From positions 32,001 through 96,000 of the IMG/VR virus record IMGVR_UViG_3300005471_000011: a DNA stretch of 64,000 nucleotides; one strand, given 5' to 3'. The position numbers and the translations under genes were made by a program. The DNA comes from a virus. A model generated the notes under the pieces. It saw only the letters and a list, made by a program, of their open reading frames with translations, did no database searches and was not told the origin of the DNA. Shown here piece by piece: positions 46-32,935 of the stretch; position 1 is the stretch's first letter, and each line of letters begins with the position of its first letter.

Positions 46-2604
46 ATGGGATTCGCCGAATGCAAACAGCGCCGTGATGGCGAACTGATGGTTGTTGAGC
101 GCCGCGCCTATTCCAGCGGATCACCCGGCGGGCTGTCTGAAATGATCAGCGGCACTGGGGGCGCGATCAACCTCGCGCAAGGCTACCGCCAGCAGGCGAA
201 ATCCCGCGAGGCGATGCGCCACTTCAAGGGCTGGGTCTGGTCCGCGACCACCTTGATTGCCAAGCGCTGCGCCGGGCAGCCGTGGATGGCGGGGCACTAT
301 GAAGAGTCACCACCCGACGCCGGCAAGCGTCCCGGCAGGCTGGGAATCAAGCGGTATATGCGGTATGACAAGGGGCTGATTCCCAGGCTCCAGCGCAAGG
401 CACCCCAGCACGCGGAAGTCGAGCCGGACCAGAACCATCGCGTGCTGTGGGACTTGGATCGTCCCAATCCACAGCAGGGCAAGTTCGAGCTAGTCTATTT
501 CTCGGTGCTCAACCTGCTGCTGACCGGGGAGTGGTTCTGGGTTGGCGGCATCAAAGAAGCGGACGACGATACCGACGCGGAAGACGACCGCCAGGTTGGT
601 GAAATGGAAGTATGGGCGGTCCCATCCGCGTGGATGTCGCGCGATGAGGAGACGGGCGGCTGGAAGATGCAGACGGGCATTGGCGCCGAGGAGATCAAGC
701 TGCCCAAGGAGAACGTGGCGCGCGGCTACTTCCCGGACCCCAGCGATCCCAAGGGCTGCGGCTCGCCGCTGGCATCTTGCATTCAGGCAGTGCGGATCGA
801 CGAGTACATCCTTTCCAGCCAGGAACAGAGCTTTGCACGCGGCATCGACCCCAAGATTGCGCTGGTCGTCGGTTCCCAGCCAGGACCGGACGGTGGCAAG
901 GGCACGCGCCCCAGGCTGGTAGGCGCCCAGCGCCGGCAGATGATCCGCGCCATTCGGCAAGTGTGGTCCCAAACGGTCAATGCGGGCGACCCGGCAATTT
1001 TGGATGGATTGATCGAGGACATCAAGAAGCTCCAGTTCGCGCCCAACGAAATGGATTGGCAAAACTCCGGCAAGATCATCAAGGACCGGATCATGCAGAC
1101 GTTCGGCGTCAATCCGATCACGCTGGGGGAAGTCACGCCTGCCAACAAAGCGCAAGCGGTCGTTGCCGAAACAAACCTTTGCACCAACGCATTGAATCCG
1201 ATCATCGAGAACCTGTCCTGCGCAGCTTCGGAGTTCTTCACGCCGTTCTATGACGATGGCAGCAAGCTGGCAGTCTGGCTGGAGAAAGCCATTCCCAAGG
1301 ACGATGAGCGGGAGGACAGACAATGGTCAGACGCACGCAAGAACGGCGACGTCACTGGAGAAGAAGTCCGCCAGCGTTTGGGATTGGAGGCAAAAGAGGA
1401 AGCGGAACGCAGCGTGCTACTGAGCAATCCCCAGGCGATGACGACGGTCGCCAATATCGCTGCGCAGGTCAGCGGCGGAACGCTGGAGCGGGAGGCGGCG
1501 GTAGCGATCATCGCCGAGTTCTTGCAGATCGCGCCGGAAGTCGCCGAGAAGATGATCCCGGAGCAGGGCGAGCCACCGGCAGCACAACCAGAGGCAAAGC
1601 CGCTTGGCGGCAGTGACGGGAAAAACTCGGCCGCAATGCGTTCGCCTTGGTCGATACGTGCGGTGAGCTTAAAGTCTTTCCGTGGCAAGATTGCCAGGGA
1701 GTTCGTCAAGTCCGCGCACGCGGCACAAGCAGATCGCCTAGAGCGTTCGATGGCGGCACCCATCGCCAAGTGGGTCAGCGACTCGGTCGATCACGCGATG
1801 GCCGGGATATTCGGTGCGCAATGGCTGCCCAGGCCAACCGAGGCCAAGGCGCAGGCAGACGCGCTGCTGGCGGCGCATTTCAGCGTGGACCGATGGACGG
1901 GCGAGCTGGCGAAGCTGCTGGGCAAGCCGTCCTCTCGCGCGTTCGTCGAGGGAGCCATCGCCGAGCACCGCATGGCACAGGCAGCGCTGCGGCGCAGGAA
2001 CCGCGACAAGGCAACCGCTGGCGAGTTCGCGTCCGAAGTCACCGGGGAAGTCTGGTTCGACGTGGATATCCCGGAATGGATCATTTCAGCAGCGCGAGCG
2101 TTCTTGGATGCGGCGTTCAACCAACCCTATTGGCTAGAGGTGGCGCAGACGACGCTCAACGACATGGCGATAGCTCTCGGCAATGCCATTTTTGAGGGCA
2201 AGAGCATCCCGCAAATTCGAGACGCGCTGATCGAGCAGTTCGGCTCGGCATACGGCAAGGCGCGAGCGACTTTGATCGCACGGACGGAAGTCGGCGGAGC
2301 GCTGAATGCGGGTGCCATCGCTTCGATCAAGCACACCTACGAGGGAACGGACCTGAAGCCAACCAAGGTCTGGCAATCGGTGCTCGGGCCAACGACGCGG
2401 GAGGAGCACGCGGACGCGGACGGTCAGGAAGTTCCCGTCGATGACAAATTTACCGTTGGCGGTGAGCTATGCGACCATCCCGGTGATGTTAGCTTGTCAA
2501 TTGGAAATCGCGCGAATTGCCAATGTTTCTGCACAGCAGGGCTGGTAGGCGCAGAACTATCAGACGAGGATGCGCAGCGGATCGAGGAAAGCATCGAAGA
2601 ATGA
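46..2604 (+). CDS. Phage portal protein fused to C-terminal Mu gpF-like head morphogenesis domain
   Basis: N-part has portal-like motifs (LDRPNPQQGKFELV..LLLTGEWFW, GSPL, EMDW, IMQTFGVNP, EEVRQRLGL). C-part has RATLIARTE..A, KVWQS....TREEHADADG, PGD...NRANCQC typical of Phage_Mu_F. No internal stop. Confidence 0.85.
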   Translation: MGFAECKQRRDGELMVVERRAYSSGSPGGLSEMISGTGGAINLAQGYRQQAKSREAMRHFKGWVWSATTLIAKRCAGQPWMAGHYEESPPDAGKRPGRLGIKRYMRYDKGLIPRLQRKAPQHAEVEPDQNHRVLWDLDRPNPQQGKFELVYFSVLNLLLTGEWFWVGGIKEADDDTDAEDDRQVGEMEVWAVPSAWMSRDEETGGWKMQTGIGAEEIKLPKENVARGYFPDPSDPKGCGSPLASCIQAVRIDEYILSSQEQSFARGIDPKIALVVGSQPGPDGGKGTRPRLVGAQRRQMIRAIRQVWSQTVNAGDPAILDGLIEDIKKLQFAPNEMDWQNSGKIIKDRIMQTFGVNPITLGEVTPANKAQAVVAETNLCTNALNPIIENLSCAASEFFTPFYDDGSKLAVWLEKAIPKDDEREDRQWSDARKNGDVTGEEVRQRLGLEAKEEAERSVLLSNPQAMTTVANIAAQVSGGTLEREAAVAIIAEFLQIAPEVAEKMIPEQGEPPAAQPEAKPLGGSDGKNSAAMRSPWSIRAVSLKSFRGKIAREFVKSAHAAQADRLERSMAAPIAKWVSDSVDHAMAGIFGAQWLPRPTEAKAQADALLAAHFSVDRWTGELAKLLGKPSSRAFVEGAIAEHRMAQAALRRRNRDKATAGEFASEVTGEVWFDVDIPEWIISAARAFLDAAFNQPYWLEVAQTTLNDMAIALGNAIFEGKSIPQIRDALIEQFGSAYGKARATLIARTEVGGALNAGAIASIKHTYEGTDLKPTKVWQSVLGPTTREEHADADGQEVPVDDKFTVGGELCDHPGDVSLSIGNRANCQCFCTAGLVGAELSDEDAQRIEESIEE

Positions 2605-5992: not shown

Positions 5993-6685
5993 ATGGCAAT
6001 TGACATCACCGCTGTATCTAGGCTAAAGCATGCCGACTTGCACAATGCGGCAAAAAAGCTCGGCGGACAATCGGCGCTGGCTAAATTCCTCGGAGTTCAC
6101 GTTTGCGAGATTGGACAATGGTGCAATCTCAGAAAAACACCGCCAAAATCCTGGCCGCCTGAAAGGCTAAATGAAATCGAGCGTAAGCTGTTCGAATTGA
6201 CGAACAAAACTTTAGATCAGCTTTTCCCAAAAGAGCTTCAGGATGCGGAGGAATTCCTGAAGGCACGCAAGGTTATTGAGACGACGAGAACAGTTGAAGT
6301 GGCGGCTTTAATCCGATACGCCGAGAGAACCGCCGAGCGGCTTTCATTTAGCAACGATTCGCAAGCAGAAAAGCTTCACGATCTTGAAGTGCTGAAGGAA
6401 CGGATTCGGAAGTCCATGAAAACGCTTTCGGACCGTGAAAATAAAATACTTGAACTGCGATTTGGACTTAACGGCTGCGAGACGCATACGCTTGCAGAAG
6501 TGGGTAGCGTTCTAGGAATAACCGGAGCACGTGTTAGGCAAATAGAATCGAAGGCTATTCGCAAATTGCAACAGCCCAGCCGATCATTTGAATTAGTTGC
6601 GTTTGCCCCAGAACGAATTGGAGCTTTGCCGCCTTACCAGCAGCCAAGGGAAGTGTGGCCAAGTGAGTTAATAGCTGACGGATAG
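5993..6685 (+). CDS. Transcription regulator: N-terminal Cro-like HTH plus C-terminal sigma70 region 4
   Basis: GGQSALAKFLGV...IGQW; LSDRENKILELRFGL...TLAEVGSVLGITGARVRQIESKAIRKL. Confidence 0.8.
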   Translation: MAIDITAVSRLKHADLHNAAKKLGGQSALAKFLGVHVCEIGQWCNLRKTPPKSWPPERLNEIERKLFELTNKTLDQLFPKELQDAEEFLKARKVIETTRTVEVAALIRYAERTAERLSFSNDSQAEKLHDLEVLKERIRKSMKTLSDRENKILELRFGLNGCETHTLAEVGSVLGITGARVRQIESKAIRKLQQPSRSFELVAFAPERIGALPPYQQPREVWPSELIADG

Positions 6686-7111: not shown

Positions 7112-8119
7112 GTGGCAAAACAAATCACGTTCGCCCTGGGAACAGCGGGAAACCTGTCAGCGCGGACGTTGACGATCCGCGCCATGGTCAATGGGGACTA
7201 CACCGACCACCTGACCACCCAAGCGCTGGCGGGCACGGTCGAGGAAGCCACGGCGGTGATCCCGGACGACTTGAACTGTGAAGCGGTGCTGATCGACCGC
7301 CGCAGCGAGTTCACGATGGCACCGGTGGTGCTGCATTTCGTGACGTCTTCGCAGATTTACCGGGATGTTCAAAGCTCCGCCGCGCCGCGATCCATCAGCG
7401 CGGGCATGCTGCGGATCGTGGACGTGGAGGAGTTGAGCGAATCGTCGGCCAGCTCGCTATCGACAAGCACGCTGAGTTCGGTCAGCAGCAGCAGCACGAG
7501 CACTTTGAGCAGCAGCTCGACAAGTTCTGTCTCCAGTAGTTCGTCCAGCCTCAGTTCCGTTAGCTCTTCCAGCAGCACTCGCAGCTCACTCAGTTCCGTT
7601 AGTTCGTCTAGCTCTAGCCATTCGACGAGCAGCGTCTCAAGCCCCAGCTCGGCCAGCAGCAGCTCGACCTCTTCGGTGTCGAGCAGCAGCAGCAGCCGGT
7701 CCACGGCATCCAGCGTGTCCAGCAGTTCCACGAGCACGCTTACGAGTTCCAGCGTCAGCTCGTCCAGTACATCGACTGTGTCAAGCTCCAGCTCAAGCAC
7801 GACGCAGACGATCAGCAGCAAATCCACGCTGTCCAGCTCGACTCGCAGCAGCAGCTCGTCCGTTACCGCGTCGAGCTTGTCGAGTTCGAGCACTTCATCC
7901 GTGTCAAGCAGCAGCTCCTCGCGCAGCCGCTCCAGCGTCAGCACGGCATCGTCATCCTCAACAAGCAGCCCTTCCACCCTATCCTCGTCGTCGAGTTCTA
8001 CGTTCAGCACTGCCTCGTCCAGTTCGAGCAGCGCCTCGTCCAGTTCGAGCAGCGTTTCTTCGTCAAGTTCAAGTACATCGTCGCTCAGCTCATCTTCGAG
8101 CAGCGTCGGCGACCTGTAG
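7112..8119 (+). CDS. Ser/Thr-rich protein (about 105-aa N-domain plus about 220-aa Ser/Thr tract)
   Basis: GTG start preceded by AGGA; tract uses all six Ser codons. Confidence 0.75.
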   Translation: MAKQITFALGTAGNLSARTLTIRAMVNGDYTDHLTTQALAGTVEEATAVIPDDLNCEAVLIDRRSEFTMAPVVLHFVTSSQIYRDVQSSAAPRSISAGMLRIVDVEELSESSASSLSTSTLSSVSSSSTSTLSSSSTSSVSSSSSSLSSVSSSSSTRSSLSSVSSSSSSHSTSSVSSPSSASSSSTSSVSSSSSSRSTASSVSSSSTSTLTSSSVSSSSTSTVSSSSSSTTQTISSKSTLSSSTRSSSSSVTASSLSSSSTSSVSSSSSSRSRSSVSTASSSSTSSPSTLSSSSSSTFSTASSSSSSASSSSSSVSSSSSSTSSLSSSSSSVGDL

Positions 8120-8134
8120 CAAAGGAACCTAAGT

Positions 8135-8788
8135 ATGCCGATCCGCATCAACCTTCCCGCCGCAGCCCGCATGATCCAGCAGAAGTCCCCTGCGGAGTTG
8201 ACCGGCGTTTACGTCGCCGTCGCAACCAAGTGCAAGGAGCTGAAGCTCACTCCGGGCCGTCGCGACACGGTGGCACCGCAGCCGTCCACCGGGGAAGGCA
8301 ACATCAACTTCCGAACTCTGATCCAGTTCGCTGAATCAGTGGAGCCTCATCCGGAGAATGAGCCGGAGGCGCCGAAGATTCTGGAGCAGGACAAGCTGCG
8401 TGACGGCGACAGCCAAGAGGTAATCGACGCGAAGGCATCGACCCAGCAGCGCAAGACGCAGGATCAGAGACGATTCGAAGCGGCGAAGGCAGAACGCAAC
8501 GAGAACCACCGGGCGTTGCGGGTTCTGCTGGGAGCTTTGACGGCGCGGTTCACTACGGCCGGCATTCCGCTGCCGGAGATCCCCAAGACAGCAGCGGAAA
8601 TTGCTGCGGCCGATAAAGTCGCGGCCGACAAGAAAGCCGCTGATGACAAGGCAGCGGCCGATAAAGTCGCCGCGGAGAATGCTTCATCCCAGGTGCCGGC
8701 GCAGCAAATGAAAGCGCCGGCAGCGCCGCCCAAGGTTGGAGCACCGCCACAACCACCGGCAGGGCGCAGGGGTCCTCCTGTTGGCTAA
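8135..8788 (+). CDS. Hypothetical protein, Ala/Lys/Pro-rich C-terminus
   Basis: AAGGA RBS; AADK repeats. Confidence 0.65.
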   Translation: MPIRINLPAAARMIQQKSPAELTGVYVAVATKCKELKLTPGRRDTVAPQPSTGEGNINFRTLIQFAESVEPHPENEPEAPKILEQDKLRDGDSQEVIDAKASTQQRKTQDQRRFEAAKAERNENHRALRVLLGALTARFTTAGIPLPEIPKTAAEIAAADKVAADKKAADDKAAADKVAAENASSQVPAQQMKAPAAPPKVGAPPQPPAGRRGPPVG

Positions 8789-8855
8789 CGCACATTTCAT
8801 GGATGAGACGGCAGCCGCGGCCGGAAAACGCGGCATATTTTGAGAGCCAAGAGTC

Positions 8856-11834
8856 ATGCCGATTCCAAAACCCAACGACGGCGAATCCGAGTCCGACTTC
8901 CACGCACGCTGCATGGAAGCTATCGGCGGAGAATACGAGCCGGACCAAGCCAACGCGATCTGCTTTTCGCAGTATCGCGGCGACAAGCGGTCCGTGATGC
9001 TCTCGATGGTCAAGGGTCGCACGTCGGGCGAGTTCGGCTACGGCATCACCACGGCGGATCGGTATGTGGAGCAGGTGATCAAATCCTGCGGCGTGGAAGC
9101 CTCGCTGTTCAACGGCCCGGCGGCGCAGGTCGCGGCGGCGATGAAGCACGCGGCTGGCATGCTGGCGTTCTGCGGCAAGGACCAGCGCCAGGACAAGATC
9201 GAAACCGGCATGGCGGCGATGCGCAAGTTGATCGGCATGGAGCCGCCGGTGCACTCCATGATGGCAATCGTCCACCGGCTAACGACGCCGCGAGAGGACC
9301 GGGACGGCGACACGCTCCAGACCAAGGGCGCACGTCCCGACCCCAAGATGCCGTTCCTGTGGCAGCATGTGTCCACGATCCCCATCGGCAAGCTGGCGCG
9401 GGTGCTAGAGCACACGGAAGAAGTGCTGAAGATGGCGACCGTGCTCCTGGACTTGAACTCGCTGACATCAGATGTCGGCAAGCTGTTTGAGGCAGAGGCG
9501 CTGCGGTTCAGTCACGGGTTCATCCCGACCAACTTTGAGGAGCGCAAGGGCGGTCCGATGGCACGGTTCAACGTGCTGGAGTTCGATGTGGTCGAGGAGT
9601 CCGCCGTCAGCGTGCCTTCCAATGTGGACGCGGAAGTGGAGCTGTTCAGCCGAGGCAAGCTCTCCAGCGATCTGGTCAAGTCCCACGCGAAGTCGCTGTT
9701 CGACGCGCGTATCAAATCCATGCCAGTAACCGACAAGGCCAAGGCGATTTTCGAGAAGGAATCCAGCGGCAAGGGATTCCCTCGCTGTGAGGTCTGCGGG
9801 CAGATCGCCAAGCTGGAGGGCACCAAGCGATGCAAGGCGTGCCGCAGCGGCAAAAAGGAAACCAGCAACCTCGTCCGCAAGATGTTCGACATCGCGACCC
9901 AGCGAGTCGAACCGACGACGATGGAATGCGACTGGGCGGCGCGGTACATCGGCTGCTCGGTCAAGGACCTGCACATCCATTCCACGTCGGCGCGCGGGAT
10001 TATGGTGGGCGGATTTCTCAAGGGGCTGGAACTGGCATGCCAGGAATTTCAGTGCAGCGACACCCGCAACATCAAAGGCGAATCGGAGTCGCCGCCGGTC
10101 TTTGAAACCAAAGAGATCGACAGCAGCACGCGGCAGAACTTCCTGGTGGAAGGCATCCGATTCTGGCACGGCGAAGGCTATAAGATCGTCACGCGCGTGG
10201 AGCCGTACTGGGATTCCCAGCAGCTCGTCGTTTACGCCGAAGAGGGCGAGCAGGCGCAGAAAATCATCGACGATGCCTGGGAATGGCTGGCCAAGAACAA
10301 CCCGCTCAAGGGGCAGGCGTTCGCGCTGACGGGAAGTTGGATCAGCAAGAGCGGCATTGGCTGGGACGACGTGTTCCTGGAAAAGAAGATCGAGGATTCC
10401 CTCAAACGCACGGTGCGGGTCATCAATGAAAAAGGCATTGACGCTGCCAACCGCGGCCTCATTCTTAGTGGCCCACCGGGTACGGGAAAAACTTTGTCCG
10501 CGCGGGTCATGCTCAACGAGACGAAGAACACCACGTTCATCTGGGTTAGCCCCAAGGACTTTTATCGCGGCGGCGGCTTCATGGAGGCGTTCTCGCTGGC
10601 GCGCCAGCTTGCCCCGACGGTGCTGATGTTCGAGGACATCGACAACTGGATTGACCGGTACTCGGTGGACCTGATCAAAGCGGAGATGGACGGGCTGCAA
10701 GAGTCCACGGGCGTTGTAACGATCCTGACGACCAACTTCCCGGACCAGTTGCCGGCGGCGCTGATCGACCGACCCGGTCGTTTCCATGACGTGCTGGAAA
10801 TCCACTTGCCGTCCAAGGACGTGCGGTTGCGGATGCTCCAGAAGTGGGCTGCGGATGCCACTCTGGACGCTTTGGCGGCGATGGCAGAGGAGACGGAGGG
10901 CTACAGCGGGGCGCACGTGTATGAGTTGTGCAGCTTCGCCAAGGTGCTCAAGGACGAAGACGGCAGCACGCTCGATGAAGCACTGACCAAGGCGTTTGCC
11001 AAGGTTAAGGATCAGCGCGAACTGATCAATCAGAACCAACTTGCCGGCAGCAGCTACCGTCCAAGCCGCCGGGATATCACTGACTTGGTCGCTAAAGGCT
11101 GGACGCGAGAAGAACGAATCACCGAAGGCGGAATTCAATACCGCCTCACAAAAGGAGTGGCGGCAATGGACACCAAGATCGGCGATGTGCTGCCCATGAT
11201 CGGCCCCATCCCACATGAAGGGGAAGCAGCGGCTGATTTCCAGTCGCGCTGCATCCTCGATCCAACAATGCTTGGCAACTACCCGACGGTGTCGGACCGG
11301 GAGAGCGCCTGCCGAATTTTGTTCTCTCGCGGCGACGGCATCTTCGCGGCAGCCAAGCCAACGACCAAGGAAGTCGGCACGTGCAAGGAATGCAGCAAGG
11401 AGATGGAACTCAATCCCCAAGGCTTGTGCGCCGAGTGCGCCAGGAAACGCGACGCCGCCGGCTACGACGAGAGCGGCCAACCGAAGTCGGCACCGGTTCA
11501 GATCAAGGCAGGGCGCGTGCTGTCCAAGCGAAACATCGAGCGGCTCAGCGAAGCGCTCAAGCGGCACCAGGAAGGCATCGAGCGGATCAAGGGCGTGCTG
11601 GACGACGCCAACCCGACCGAAGAAGTCGCACCAACGGAGCCAGGTGCCAATGCACCGCTCGCCGGACCAGATCACGTGATGACCCAGGCGGTGCTGCTGG
11701 TCGCCGAGGACCGCGCCGCGCGGGACAAACTGCGCAAGGCCATCGATGCGTTCGATTTGGCGGACGAAGAGGAGCAGAAATCATCGGATTACGAATCACT
11801 GTTCGAAGAGGCGTTAGTTGCGGAAACGGCTTGA
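8856..11834 (+). CDS. HK97-type prohead protease fused to AAA+ ATPase and Zn-finger motifs
   Basis: Protease: DRDGD, FLWQH..IPIGK, FSHGF, EESAVSVPSN. ATPase: GPPGTGKT, LMFEDID, LTTN, DRPGRF, GYSGA. Two CxxC..CxxC pairs. Immediately upstream of the capsid gene. Confidence 0.85.
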   Translation: MPIPKPNDGESESDFHARCMEAIGGEYEPDQANAICFSQYRGDKRSVMLSMVKGRTSGEFGYGITTADRYVEQVIKSCGVEASLFNGPAAQVAAAMKHAAGMLAFCGKDQRQDKIETGMAAMRKLIGMEPPVHSMMAIVHRLTTPREDRDGDTLQTKGARPDPKMPFLWQHVSTIPIGKLARVLEHTEEVLKMATVLLDLNSLTSDVGKLFEAEALRFSHGFIPTNFEERKGGPMARFNVLEFDVVEESAVSVPSNVDAEVELFSRGKLSSDLVKSHAKSLFDARIKSMPVTDKAKAIFEKESSGKGFPRCEVCGQIAKLEGTKRCKACRSGKKETSNLVRKMFDIATQRVEPTTMECDWAARYIGCSVKDLHIHSTSARGIMVGGFLKGLELACQEFQCSDTRNIKGESESPPVFETKEIDSSTRQNFLVEGIRFWHGEGYKIVTRVEPYWDSQQLVVYAEEGEQAQKIIDDAWEWLAKNNPLKGQAFALTGSWISKSGIGWDDVFLEKKIEDSLKRTVRVINEKGIDAANRGLILSGPPGTGKTLSARVMLNETKNTTFIWVSPKDFYRGGGFMEAFSLARQLAPTVLMFEDIDNWIDRYSVDLIKAEMDGLQESTGVVTILTTNFPDQLPAALIDRPGRFHDVLEIHLPSKDVRLRMLQKWAADATLDALAAMAEETEGYSGAHVYELCSFAKVLKDEDGSTLDEALTKAFAKVKDQRELINQNQLAGSSYRPSRRDITDLVAKGWTREERITEGGIQYRLTKGVAAMDTKIGDVLPMIGPIPHEGEAAADFQSRCILDPTMLGNYPTVSDRESACRILFSRGDGIFAAAKPTTKEVGTCKECSKEMELNPQGLCAECARKRDAAGYDESGQPKSAPVQIKAGRVLSKRNIERLSEALKRHQEGIERIKGVLDDANPTEEVAPTEPGANAPLAGPDHVMTQAVLLVAEDRAARDKLRKAIDAFDLADEEEQKSSDYESLFEEALVAETA

Positions 11835-11900
11835 CGCCGCCCGCAGTGTTCCATAGACGGGCCGCTGCTGCGGCGATAGAACTGTAACCTTCCTAGGAGA

Positions 11901-13535
11901 ATGATCATGAAAGTCACGAGCCAATTGAAGGCGTGGCTCCAGAGCGAAAAAGGCGTCAAGCCGGACGCGACGGAGCAGGACTACCGACAGGCCGCCGCCA
12001 AGGCGCTGACGGATGACACCAACCCGCTGTCTGCGGAGAAGTTTGCGGAGCTGACGGCAGGGGAGGCAGTAAAGCCCGCCAACGCCATGCTGGCGATGAT
12101 GGAGAAGATGAACGCCCGGCTGGACGAGCAAGATGCTCGTTTCAAGAGCATAGAGACAGGTGGTCACCGCGCGGAAGCACCGATCGTTCCAGCCGGCTTG
12201 AAAGCGGCGATCATGGGCGGTGCCAGCGAGATCCCCGACGCCAGCGGTCAGCCGCGCATCAAGCGAGCGGCGGAGCGCTACAACAAGGCGCGCGGCGAGC
12301 TGCGATTCCCGGAGCCGGAGATCAAGAACGAGCGGTATGCCCTGCATCCCCGCAAGGGCCAGCTCGCCAGCTACGGCTCCGCCGGTCGCCATTGCGGCGA
12401 GTTTCAGGTCGGGCAACTTTCCGAGCTGGAGAAGGCTTGCTGCGGCTCATTCATCAAGTTCAGCATCCACAAGGCAGCCAACGGCTTTGGTCCGCCGGTG
12501 CCGCACAACCTGCGCATGAACGATCAAGACTGGGACTTGGTCCAGTACATGATCGAGGAGTGCGAGTGGGGCGGTGTGCTCCACGGGGAAGGCAGCGACT
12601 TCGAAGGCGCGGTCGGCTTGAACGGCAAGCAGCGCCTGATCAAGGGCGCGCAGTTCAACATGCAGAAGGCGCTGCTGGACGATAACACGTCCGGCGGTCT
12701 GGAAGCGGCGCCGATCTTCTTCGACGAGATGCTGATCACCACGCCGCTGCTTCACGGGGAATTGTTCCCGTCGGTGGAAGTTATCAACGTCACGCGCGGG
12801 CGGCGCATCGAGGGCGTCACGATGTCCAACGTGACCCTCGGCGCGGCGACGGAAGGTTCCACGATCACTCTGTTCAACACCGCAGCTTTCATTGCGGCGT
12901 TCGACACGACGATCTTCGTGTGCATGGGTGCCATCGAAATCGGTCTGGACTTCCTGTCCGACTCTCCGATTGACATTGCCGGCGCGGTGGCCAAGAGCTA
13001 CCAGGAGCGGCTGCTGTCCTGGCTGGACGAGCAGATCGCCATCGGCGACGGCACCACGGAGCCGGAAGGTTTGCTTAACAGCGGTGCCACGTCCGTCGGT
13101 TCCACCAACACGTCGGCAGGTCCTTGGACGATTGGCGATGAGTTGGCGCTGATGTTCGCCGTGGCCAAGCAGTATCAAACTGGCTTTGACCGCTCGCGTA
13201 TCCGCTACAGCGGCAACGAAGTGACGTACCGCCGGCTGCGGTCGATCCAGGTGACGACCTCGGATCAGCGACTCGTCCAGGGCATGGACGTGCGGTCGTA
13301 CATGATCCTGGACCAGCCTTACGCCGTGAACGGCAACTGGACCAACCGCCAGCTTGCCTACGCGAATCTGGCTCGTTACCGGATGTATCGCCGCCTTGGC
13401 ATGACCGTCCGCTGGGAAACCGCCGGCGCCACACTGGGTCGCAGCAACACCGGTTTGCTGATTGCCCGCTCGCGTTGGGGTGGGCAGTTGACGGACGCGC
13501 TGGCCGCTTCTCTTTGCACCGACGGCATGTCGTAA
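11901..13535 (+). CDS. Major capsid protein (HK97 fold) with long N-terminal scaffold-like extension
   Basis: AGGAG RBS; SGGLEAAP, EGSTI, FLSDSPIDI, DEQIAIGDGTTEPEGLL, RWGG; position after the protease. Confidence 0.85.
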   Translation: MIMKVTSQLKAWLQSEKGVKPDATEQDYRQAAAKALTDDTNPLSAEKFAELTAGEAVKPANAMLAMMEKMNARLDEQDARFKSIETGGHRAEAPIVPAGLKAAIMGGASEIPDASGQPRIKRAAERYNKARGELRFPEPEIKNERYALHPRKGQLASYGSAGRHCGEFQVGQLSELEKACCGSFIKFSIHKAANGFGPPVPHNLRMNDQDWDLVQYMIEECEWGGVLHGEGSDFEGAVGLNGKQRLIKGAQFNMQKALLDDNTSGGLEAAPIFFDEMLITTPLLHGELFPSVEVINVTRGRRIEGVTMSNVTLGAATEGSTITLFNTAAFIAAFDTTIFVCMGAIEIGLDFLSDSPIDIAGAVAKSYQERLLSWLDEQIAIGDGTTEPEGLLNSGATSVGSTNTSAGPWTIGDELALMFAVAKQYQTGFDRSRIRYSGNEVTYRRLRSIQVTTSDQRLVQGMDVRSYMILDQPYAVNGNWTNRQLAYANLARYRMYRRLGMTVRWETAGATLGRSNTGLLIARSRWGGQLTDALAASLCTDGMS

Positions 13536-14613: not shown

Positions 14614-14901
14614 ATGGACGGCGACCCGTTGCATTCTGAACAGCTAATGCGGCTGACCATCGCGGTTGAAAAACTCGCGAGCGAGGTCGCCAACCAGACC
14701 AGGGTGATTAATGATTCAACCCAAAAAATAGCCGAGATTGAGGAGCGGATTGCCGGCGAGAACGGCATATCAACCAGGTTGGCCGTTGGCGAGGATCGCT
14801 TGAAGCGGCTCAGCACGACGGTGTACGGGACGATTGCTGTGGTCGGGACGGAGTTCATTGGTTTCGTGTTCATTATCCTCGAAAGACTGCTCAAGCGATG
14901 A
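14614..14901 (+). CDS. Coiled-coil protein with C-terminal transmembrane helix (holin-like position and shape)
   Basis: Heptad-like N-part; hydrophobic VYGTIAVVGTEFIGFVFIIL. Confidence 0.55.
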   Translation: MDGDPLHSEQLMRLTIAVEKLASEVANQTRVINDSTQKIAEIEERIAGENGISTRLAVGEDRLKRLSTTVYGTIAVVGTEFIGFVFIILERLLKR

Positions 14902-15401
14902 CGATGTCTGAAAGCATTAACACAGACTCCGTCGCTTCCGTCATCGAGGAACTGAAGGGAATCAGGGCAGCGCTGCGAGGCGAGCGCAAGATCGGCGCCC
15001 TGCCCATCATGCTTCAGGATGTGCTGTCGAGCGTGCCGCTGCTGATCGTCGATATGGATAGCGGCAAAATCCTGTACGCGACGGAAGAAGCGGATGATCT
15101 GTTCGGCTACATCCCAGGCGAGTTAGCCGGCAAAGACTTGCACGTTTTGATCCCCAAGGAACTCCGGGATCGGCATCGTGAACATCTTCAGAAATACCGC
15201 GAGTGGCCTCGCAAACGCCGGATGGGGATATTCGGGATGGATTTAATGGGACTGCACCGGGATGGCCATACGTTTCATTTGGCGATTGGGCTCGTGCCGC
15301 GCGTCGTGGATGAGCAACGCATCGTCATCGCAACGATCTTCGACGCGGATACTTCCGTGGAACCATCGCTGCATTACGACGCGGGAGGGTTGAAGCATTG
15401 A
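14898..15401 (+). CDS. Stand-alone PAS domain protein
   Basis: ADDLFGY..GELAGKDLHVLIP..LRDRH...Y....R.MG...LMGLHRDGHTF..AIGL. Confidence 0.8.
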   Translation: MTMSESINTDSVASVIEELKGIRAALRGERKIGALPIMLQDVLSSVPLLIVDMDSGKILYATEEADDLFGYIPGELAGKDLHVLIPKELRDRHREHLQKYREWPRKRRMGIFGMDLMGLHRDGHTFHLAIGLVPRVVDEQRIVIATIFDADTSVEPSLHYDAGGLKH

Positions 15402-31451: not shown

Positions 31452-32935
31452 TGCTTCGCGCAGACTTCCGCGACACACCGATGATCCCGACCGGGGGACT
31501 GCTCAATGAGATGAGCGGTGGCGTCAACGCTGTCCAACCCGCTGGGCTATCGAGCTTCAATCAGGGGATATTTGGAAAGCACGTCGGGACGCCAGAAACG
31601 ATCATCGGTACGGCGGTGATCACGGATGACAGCAACCTCTGCCAGATTCCTGCAGGCCAGACGGAGACAGATGCCCCATGCGGGCGCGAAGGAAAGTACG
31701 CGGCGGTCTTTCGCTACCACGACGGCAACCGCTGGCAGAACCGCGAGACGGTGCTGCGGATCGACGCGGGAGGCTACCACAATGGTACGCCTGGGCAAGG
31801 CAACATCCCCATCTACGGCGTCGGCGACGTCGTCCCGGCGTTCTACGATCAGCAGAGGCTGTGGTGCATCCCCATCCAGTCGCCGCCCGACAGGGATTGC
31901 GTGGCGGCGTTCCGCGGGCAGACAAATCAAGGCGTGCCGCGCGGCCAAGCGGGGGACTGCCTATCTCCGGATGCTGCGGAGGTTCATTGCCAGCAGTTCC
32001 GCTCTTCGTTCGGCAATTGGAAGTCATTGACGCCAAAGCTGATCTTTCCACCTATGCGGCAGAAGGACGGGCACATAATTGCGCAGTGCAGCGCGATCAC
32101 GGTCTTGCACCACATGGAAGAGGTCCGGCTGGCTTGCGTCATGCATCAGCACTCGCGAGCGGTGCTGCGGATTCCCGGCCACGGCATCGACTTTCGGTTC
32201 ATCGCCAAGCTTGGCGCCGGCGCAGGTTCCGGAGTGGCACCGCTGATCAACACTCCCAAGGGCGTGGCGACTCTGGGCGGGCTTGCCAAATACGCGGAAT
32301 CCTCCGGCAGGTTCATCGGCTCGCCGGCGGTTCTGTCTTTCGGCAATTCCATCCGCGTGGCGATGGCCAGCGCCAACGATGAGTGGTTGGTGGAGCTGAC
32401 CTGGGGCGCGGAGGTCATCCAGGACAATCTGACGACGTTCGCCAAGATCAAGGTGCCGCCGGGGGACAGCTCCGGCAACACCTTGCAAACCGGCGAGTTC
32501 ATGGACCCCATCGAGGACGCTTACCACGATGCGATCCTGGTCAAAGACCACACCGGCGCAGAGTACACGGATCGCACGATGAGAATCTGGCTGTCCTTTA
32601 TCGACCGCTGGTCATCGGACATTGTCGCAGGGGAGCAGGGCAGGGTTTATGGTCCCGTGGAGTACGCCGGCATCGTCACTGCCGGCGGCGAAGAACGACC
32701 GCTATATGTGACGACGGCAATCGAGGAGGAGTATTTTGCCAAGACCGTTAACGGCAGCGGCACGATGGCGAAGGATACCAGCGAGAGCTTCCTGCTGTAC
32801 TACAAGAACTGGCAGCCATCTAAGGTGACGAAGAACGCTACAAGTTCCTTCGGCGCGATCAAGCGTGGCAAACGGTGCGTGCTCAAGCGCATGAACGGGT
32901 TCCTGGTCGCCAGCCAAGCGGAGTGCGGCTCGTGA
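31451..32935 (+). CDS. Tail-associated protein
   Basis: Coupled ORF in the tail module. Confidence 0.55.
   Translation: MLRADFRDTPMIPTGGLLNEMSGGVNAVQPAGLSSFNQGIFGKHVGTPETIIGTAVITDDSNLCQIPAGQTETDAPCGREGKYAAVFRYHDGNRWQNRETVLRIDAGGYHNGTPGQGNIPIYGVGDVVPAFYDQQRLWCIPIQSPPDRDCVAAFRGQTNQGVPRGQAGDCLSPDAAEVHCQQFRSSFGNWKSLTPKLIFPPMRQKDGHIIAQCSAITVLHHMEEVRLACVMHQHSRAVLRIPGHGIDFRFIAKLGAGAGSGVAPLINTPKGVATLGGLAKYAESSGRFIGSPAVLSFGNSIRVAMASANDEWLVELTWGAEVIQDNLTTFAKIKVPPGDSSGNTLQTGEFMDPIEDAYHDAILVKDHTGAEYTDRTMRIWLSFIDRWSSDIVAGEQGRVYGPVEYAGIVTAGGEERPLYVTTAIEEEYFAKTVNGSGTMAKDTSESFLLYYKNWQPSKVTKNATSSFGAIKRGKRCVLKRMNGFLVASQAECGS

Follow-up and report, generated by a model that had tools for sequence, protein, structure and literature searches.

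What would an ATPase do inside a prohead protease? In textbook HK97-type head maturation, ATP is spent on DNA packaging only, and assembly, proteolysis and scaffold removal are taken to proceed without an energy source; the S78-type prohead proteases are not known to require ATP. The question is raised by a 64,000-nucleotide (nt) stretch of an uncultured soil phage (hereafter the window; positions 32,001 to 96,000 of the 104,107-base IMG/VR virus record IMGVR_UViG_3300005471_000011, from a rhizosphere metagenome, CheckV completeness 83%), in which one open reading frame (ORF) of 992 amino acids (aa) plus stop (P0001; 8856..11834, + strand) encodes both enzymes. An earlier note on this DNA had read protease, Zn-finger and AAA motifs in this single ORF, a reading borne out motif by motif, and the N-terminus of the frame (MPIPKPNDGE) agrees with the N-termini of homologues. 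Taken together, sequence comparisons and structure models indicate that the product is a head-assembly polyprotein consisting of an S78 protease, an inserted cassette of an N-domain and a AAA ATPase, and a C-terminal tail shared with relatives that have no ATPase.

By alignment and by modelled fold, the S78 protease domain is real and looks active. It spans aa 46-295 (8991..9740, +), comprising a conserved N-terminal helical part and the S78 core, and carries the motifs LWQH (aa 168-171, nt 9357-9368), FSHGF (aa 218-222, nt 9507-9521) and SAVSVPSN (aa 249-256, nt 9600-9623). In a 16-sequence alignment that includes HK97 gp4, the catalytic residues H171 (nt 9366-9368) and S219 (nt 9510-9512) align with gp4 H65 and S114, the catalytic pair of that enzyme; both columns are invariant, as are E247, S249 and N256, and H171 and S219 are also invariant in 101 family members. 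The 992-aa protein itself scores below the family cut-offs (PF04586, Peptidase_S78, 16.6 bits against 21; TIGR01543, 25.9 bits, E 8.8e-6, against 59), homologues at 40-60% identity exceed that of PF04586 (P0044, 33.6 bits; P0024, 29.6 bits; P0108, 36.7 bits), and aa 143-268 of P0001 match phrog_617 at E 1e-9. An AlphaFold model of aa 40-345 (mean predicted local distance difference test score, pLDDT, 80.9) contains the assemblin-like fold of the herpesvirus and T4 gp21 proteases: VIA-align matched it to T4 gp21 (5jbl_A) at Z 11.4 (root-mean-square deviation, rmsd, 3.0 A; 142 of 165 residues aligned), with far lower values for the next fold matches, the varicella-zoster virus (VZV) and human cytomegalovirus (HCMV) proteases (Z 6.1 and 5.3), and Foldseek also ranked 5jbl top (probability 0.94). 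The HK97-type identity proposed in the earlier note is upheld by this fold match and by the aligned catalytic His and Ser.

Downstream of the protease lies the cassette, which begins with a family-specific N-domain (aa 341-530, 9876..10445, +), modelled as an alpha+beta helix-grip-like fold followed by a linker helix, and continues with a classical-clade AAA ATPase (aa 531-735, 10446..11060, +; Pfam AAA, E 4.8e-17). The ATPase has a Walker A motif GPPGTGKT (aa 539-546, nt 10470-10493; G539 to K545-T546), a Walker B acidic pair E593-D594 (nt 10632-10637), sensor-1 N627 (nt 10734-10736), DRPGRF (aa 638-643) with Arg fingers R639 and R642 (within nt 10770-10781), and a lid motif SGAH (aa 684-687). 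Its second region of homology, with the sensor-1 Asn, two Arg fingers and no sensor-2 Arg, has the classical-clade AAA pattern. Walker A, the acidic pair, sensor-1 and the Arg fingers do not vary among 165 members, the most distant at ~40% identity, and SGAH is invariant or nearly so. The earlier description of a complete AAA+ module thus stands as regards Walker A, sensor-1, DRPGRF and the classical clade, but the module is not fully canonical, as all 165 members have E-D at Walker B in place of D-E. Of 118 cellular AAA controls aligned to this query, 113 have D-E in these columns (the controls come from a search of genome contigs, where the matches listed were generic cellular AAA genes covering the AAA part only, best E 6e-23). 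On these alignments, the swapped acidic pair is a hallmark of the family; it leaves both acidic residues present and does not exclude ATPase activity.

The closest solved structures to the AAA domain are Cdc48, AFG2 and p97 (1e-35), then PAN and YjoB (1e-19); the single-domain PDB matches include a p97 D1 fragment (E 2.6e-20), PAN (1.5e-19) and YjoB (3.3e-19), and Bcs1 is not among the best 60. The nearest NCBIfam models, PAN, CDC48 and FtsH (TIGR01241, E 1e-16), match far under every cut-off, and by these comparisons the domain is not orthologous to any named ATPase. Among cellular sequences, a 488-aa AAA protein from a Solirubrobacteraceae metagenome-assembled genome (L071, 5557-7023) also shows E-D at Walker B; its alignment takes in the AAA domain and the end of the N-domain (28% identity over 309 columns), and it may be a relative of the cassette.

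The protease-AAA layout extends well beyond this phage. A word-based search of JGI, ENA, NCBI and Logan assemblies gave ~45 clusters at 90% identity with this layout, and an exhaustive HMMER search with aa 341-740 gave 383 representatives of 50%-identity clusters at E <= 1e-30. Nearly all of the best 150 of these match the N-domain and AAA over almost the whole length at E < 1e-88, a few being interrupted by inserts or cut N-terminally. A family hidden Markov model (HMM) recognised the protease in 87 of 134 new representatives, and Pfam in 7 more; within the 87, the protease lay ahead of the recognised Walker A in 72 and behind it in 4, and the remaining 11 had no site matching the Walker A regular expression. 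Sequence searches thus indicate a layout common to hundreds of uncultured phages. Members of these clusters have been named only 'HK97 family phage prohead protease' or 'DNA polymerase III delta prime subunit', and cultured phages match the AAA core only, at 25-29% identity and over no more than 22% of the 992-aa protein.

Misassembly is very unlikely, because the architecture recurs in more than 100 independent metagenomic lineages. Two of the checks suggested in the earlier note, a domain-architecture search and read support across the junctions, point the same way: two Logan contigs from a run that may be the source sample of the phage record, one of 14.7 kb covering 8600-10608 and one of 47.6 kb covering 10579-12100, match without mismatch and overlap by 30 bases at like depth, the 14.7-kb contig spans the protease/N-domain/Walker A junctions, and identical fragments occur in a sample of a second rhizosphere study. 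No RNA data set is among the sequencing runs listed as containing the sequence. One assembly break does fall inside the AAA domain, at a word found in the AAA genes of other organisms, and the module is dispensable in relatives (see below), both of which might be taken as signs of an artefact or of a selfish, decaying insertion without present function. Set against the invariance of all catalytic residues in 165 members and the recurrence of the architecture in well over 100 independent assemblies, such an explanation strikes us as scarcely credible.

The cassette is tied to prohead proteases in three gene arrangements, of which the protease-first order described above is one. In the second, exemplified by L006, the N-domain and AAA, the S78 protease and an HK97-type capsid protein follow one another in a single 1043-aa ORF, and P0186 and P0197 are further clusters of such AAA-protease-capsid triple fusions. 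In the third, found in the Mu-like head module of L009, the cassette is a separate 559-aa gene, located between a Mu-type portal gene and a gpT-type capsid gene. The S78 protease gene starts within the end of this cassette gene, the product of which stops soon after the AAA domain, without the shared tail; other short representatives consist of the cassette only (442-553 aa). The N-terminal scaffold part of HK97-type capsid proteins is inside the prohead (PMC12749128), and because the ATPase of the triple fusions is N-terminal to the HK97-fold capsid protein, it would lie inside the shell. Two further cassette-bearing ORFs upstream of capsid genes (L005, 7041-11150, 1369 aa; L007, 4247-7201, 984 aa) have no Pfam protease match in their N-terminal 300-600 residues, which may be a divergent protease or a different partner.

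Our tentatively favoured explanation is that the cassette is a chaperone or unfoldase that is packaged into the prohead and works with the protease. The earlier note had suggested an ATP-driven scaffold unfoldase-protease or an ATPase packaged for release by self-cleavage, and each is kept here as a candidate. The tail would dock the protein on inward-facing N-terminal scaffold domains of the capsid protein, as the tail of HK97 gp4 does, and protease and ATPase would thereby be built into the prohead interior. There the ATPase would oligomerise into a ring fuelled by ATP diffusing into the porous prohead, and would grip, remodel or unfold folded internal material, be it scaffold domains, passenger domains or the polyprotein itself, which the protease would then cut, so that the interior is emptied for DNA. 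Several features of the sequences argue for this explanation: both enzymes are intact and conserved, the cassette fits precisely between the protease and the shared tail, the gene adjoins the capsid gene, three arrangements link the cassette to a prohead protease, the ATPase is predicted to lie inside the shell in triple fusions, some members have inteins at the P-loop, and the neighbours of the N-domain include proteins linked to ClpS or ClpX domains (described below).

The inteins deserve a word of their own, as inteins usually occupy functionally important sites. Large inserts break up the cassette in a group comprising P0016, P0030, P0123, P0160, P0164, P0174, P0180, P0185, P0206 and P0235, at the Walker A P-loop (query position ~202 of aa 341-740) or, in others, near position 100 of the N-domain. 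Pfam Intein_splicing matches P0016, and at least some of the inserts are, as far as sequence can tell, inteins in the ATPase.

A first set of observations that weighs against an unfoldase working with the protease concerns the dispensability of the cassette. In the relatives L010-L031, the same portal-MuF, protease and long-extension capsid genes are found with no ATPase within 8 kb. The L012 protein of this AAA-less group aligns with aa 1-318 and 841-983 of the 992-aa protein, which makes the cassette a clean insert of ~520 residues, positioned exactly between protease and shared tail. In a tree built from the protease domain (101 rows labelled for the cassette by HMM, of which 23 without a recognisable tail were left unscored; IQ-TREE quick search with support from the Shimodaira-Hasegawa-like approximate likelihood ratio test, SH-aLRT, only), presence and absence of the cassette require at least 12 gains or losses, at least 4 of them forced by well-supported branches. 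The module is accessory because it is patchy on this tree, and sequence evidence thus makes the cassette an accessory helper, not a core part. The HK97-fold domain of the capsid protein encoded next to P0001 (aa 292-535) is preceded by an N-terminal extension of ~290 aa, a putative scaffold domain, and the AAA-less sister phages carry the same extension; together with the gains and losses on the tree, this argues that maturation does not need the module. The earlier note had put the extension at ~250 aa and offered it as the substrate of the ATPase; with the Pfam domain starting at 292 the length is revised, and a role as a special ATPase substrate was rejected, since L010-L031 have the extension too. 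In the AAA-less relatives P0051, P0057 and P0108, moreover, the same slot before the tail holds unrelated inserts, which would fit a passive passenger equally.

The second set concerns mechanism. The stretch aligned with pore loop 1 (D568-F569-[Y/W/H]570-x-x-G573-G574) keeps its aromatics, but the loop falls 5-6 residues short of its counterparts in Cdc48 D1 and D2, and threading AAA proteins have the longer form. With an E-D Walker B, hydrolysis may be slow or switch-like, and the docking role of the tail is proposed by analogy with HK97 gp4. Bcs1 is reported to be without the canonical pore loop, and a module of the Bcs1 kind might do no polypeptide threading whatsoever (PMC7994207).

The patchy, accessory distribution and the variable slot are what would be expected if the ATPase were instead a packaged passenger, the protease-plus-tail protein being a delivery vehicle and the ATPase one cargo domain among several that occupy the slot ahead of the tail; cut free in the head and kept internal, it would be ejected with the DNA to act early on host proteins, such as defence or proteostasis factors. 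The phage also has a portal-MuF fusion, MuF proteins being known carriers of variable domains, and stand-alone relatives of the module occur in phages and bacteria. Nevertheless, we regard a passenger as rather unlikely. The triple fusions would place one ATPase on every capsid subunit, far too much to keep beside DNA, which implies removal and not delivery and weighs against pure cargo; the L009 module is a separate 559-aa gene without the shared tail; the specific link to the protease in three gene arrangements exceeds what random cargo would give; and a ring ATPase would have to unfold, pass the tail and reassemble. Patchy distribution and a promiscuous slot weigh against an essential machine, and patchy distribution also against an essential unfoldase-protease of the Lon or FtsH kind. 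Were the ATPase cargo after all, the protease-tail protein would be a general vehicle for loading enzymes into heads, of relevance to phage biology and to protein packaging into capsid nanocontainers.

The slot inserts themselves are diverse: they lie at aa 330-430 in P0057 and at aa ~620-720 in P0051 and P0049, and one is a Cys-rich region of CxxxCxxC repeats, another a small conserved domain (...WALFDDYGII...ECYYRA.W) that immediately precedes the tail motif K.GR.LS..N.

Another possibility, action before or during shell assembly, draws in part on the N-domain. Its AlphaFold model (mean pLDDT 85.9) gave a best VIA Z of 7.4 in an exhaustive structure comparison, with no match above background. 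Foldseek returned seven Bcs1 entries (probability 0.85-0.99, E 1.4e-3 to 5.6e-3), which by VIA reach Z 5.4-5.8 over 101-111 residues at rmsd 3.8-6.2 A, not above unrelated folds (Z 7.4). Bcs1 is absent from the top 50 of a wide PDB fold search with the N-domain, BCS1_N (PF08740) has no match in the 992-aa protein at E<=1, and no membrane segment is evident. Atlas structural neighbours of the N-domain are the N-domains of stand-alone phage and bacterial AAA proteins, some of them from cellular AAA proteins that carry a fused substrate-handling domain, ClpS or a ClpX zinc finger, and in two Atlas feature-neighbour clusters BCS1_N occurs in 13-37% of members. The Walker B of Bcs1 is probably E-D too. 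The N-domain and AAA module is possibly Bcs1/YjoB-like, and we do not call it a member of that group.

A Bcs1-like module would suit an assembly-side chaperone or timer, active in building the shell and not in clearing it. The module might hold the protease-tail protein in a soluble, inactive state, or seed assembly at the portal or beneath capsomers; ATP binding or hydrolysis would control protease activation, and the E-D Walker B would suit a slow switch. The invariance of that pair, the Foldseek likeness of the N-domain to Bcs1 and the existence of split and stand-alone forms that could act in trans all agree with such a role; in Bcs1, concerted changes driven by nucleotide serve to handle folded proteins (PMC7994207), and a head-assembly function has been predicted by Iyer et al. 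for stand-alone BCS1-like ATPases of jumbo phages (PMC7824862). On the other side, the Bcs1 likeness is weak and not above background, a membrane segment is not apparent, close relatives dispense with the module, and the present data do not separate an assembly-side role from clearance. We consider an assembly-side role unlikely.

A bolder variant makes the ATPase a nucleotide-gated part of the scaffold itself. Six modules, tethered to the inward-pointing N-termini of capsid proteins directly or through the tail, would ring under each hexamer and template capsomers or curvature by ATP binding, and hydrolysis would serve as a clock that releases the scaffold to the protease. We hold this proposal to be quite improbable; if true, it would amount to an energy-consuming checkpoint in capsid assembly, and none is known from any tailed phage or herpesvirus.

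The protein resembles several known systems in part. The prohead proteases HK97 gp4 and T4 gp21 (MEROPS S78/S77; PF04586; TIGR01543) share with it the fold, the aligned catalytic His and Ser, the location of the gene between portal and capsid genes and a C-terminal tail after the catalytic domain; it differs from them in ~520 extra residues between catalytic domain and tail (Zn ribbon, N-domain, AAA and a second mini-domain) and in scoring below the PF04586 and TIGR01543 cut-offs. FtsH and Lon likewise combine an ATPase ring module and a protease in one polypeptide, and the AAA core is related to that of FtsH, but the protease here is an S78 assemblin-like serine type, not M41 or S16, and coupling of the two enzymes is neither fixed in order nor obligatory: the order varies, a split form exists and close relatives are without the ATPase. 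As in Bcs1 and YjoB, single-ring AAA proteins, a single AAA domain with a short pore-loop-1 region follows an alpha+beta N-domain, and YjoB is among the best single-domain PDB matches; unlike them, the module has no evident transmembrane anchor and is embedded in a phage protease, and PAN and p97 D1 score as well as YjoB. PHROG 617-type protease-capsid fusions also place a protease in a larger head polyprotein, as does L006 in joining protease and capsid protein, but the partner in P0001 is an ATPase and the capsid protein is encoded separately.

The nearest published idea is that of Iyer et al. (2021), who proposed for the stand-alone BCS1-like ATPases of jumbo phages a role in moving folded proteins into heads (PMC7824862). 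These are also phage-encoded classical AAA proteins with a proposed role in head assembly, but they are separate genes, fusion to a protease was not described and their role is a prediction. Full-text searches of the literature turned up no paper describing either a fusion of prohead protease and AAA or DUF3721, so that of the earlier note's refuting clause, 'already common and characterised', the first half applies, given how common the architecture is in metagenomes, and the second does not. The fusion is real and widespread, has no description in the literature searched, and is a variant of the prohead protease. A conserved ring ATPase is built into the maturation protease, encoded beside it or joined to the capsid protein in hundreds of uncultured phage lineages and, if it acts in the prohead, it would constitute an optional ATP-driven step of capsid maturation that no model phage has shown.

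The remaining parts of the 992-aa protein were delimited from a 36-member alignment with per-position conservation. At the N-terminus, mini-domain 1 (aa 1-45, 8856..8990, +), present in ~41% of aligned members, is DUF3721-like and bears the motif P.P..GE...DF..RC at aa 4 and a second Cys; PF12518 (DUF3721) matches the homologues P0012, P0048 and P0051, and has no match to the 992-aa protein at E<=1. The earlier note had seen this motif again after the ATPase, and mini-domain 2 (aa 781-825, 11196..11330, +; motif at aa 784) is indeed a repeat of the first: over 17 aa the copies share 47% identity (pairwise E 3e-6), and mini-domain 2 can be aligned with the mini-domain at the N-terminus of the AAA-less L012 homologue as well. 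It lies in a variable stretch, aa 740-880, that also contains the second of two Zn ribbons, the pair of Zn fingers of the earlier note. Zn ribbon 1 (C311-x2-C314 ... C326-x2-C329, 9786..9842, +; region aa 306-332 in the layout) has a weak Pfam Zn_ribbon_15 match and was not found at the corresponding place in the close relatives P0002-P0011, and Zn ribbon 2 (C843-x2-C846 ... C858-x2-C861, 11382..11438, +) is kept in close relatives and aligns with the sole Zn ribbon of the L012 protein. The C-terminal tail (aa 881-992, 11496..11831, +), a putative capsid-docking or scaffold-like part by analogy, contains KAGRVLSKRN (aa 884-893, nt 11505-11534) and a conserved end segment; members keep its motif K.GR.LS..N whether or not they have the AAA domain, and the tail can be aligned with the C-terminal ends of the L010 and L012 proteins. 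Inspection by eye found no cleavage-site motif shared between the domain borders and the capsid maturation site.

The surrounding genes form a conserved head module of portal-MuF, protease and capsid genes, in which the protease gene always adjoins the capsid gene, and the order portal, protease, capsid is the same here as in related loci. The module starts with an 852-aa portal protein fused to a MuF-like domain (46..2604, +; Pfam Phage_portal and Phage_Mu_F, PHROG portal and head-morphogenesis families), kept upstream of the protease gene in related loci either as the same one-ORF fusion or in the same adjacency. The 544-aa major capsid protein (11901..13535, +; Pfam Phage_capsid E 6e-15, TIGR01554 E 1e-17) begins 66 bases after the 992-aa ORF. 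Several small or odd genes lie between the portal-MuF gene and the 992-aa ORF. Directly upstream of the protease gene, a 217-aa Ala/Lys/Pro-rich ORF (8135-8788, +) has no family match but has a weak relative in the corresponding position of L010, and it might encode a scaffold or decoration protein. It is preceded by a 335-aa ORF (7112-8119, +), also with no family match, in which ~100 ordinary residues are followed by near-pure Ser/Thr in an SSSSTSS rhythm. Unexpected genes in or beside the head module encode a cytidylyltransferase (PF02348; 3965-4747, +), a protein with sigma-70 region 4 and a YdaS-like helix-turn-helix (5993-6685, +) and a stand-alone PAS-domain protein (14898-15401, +).

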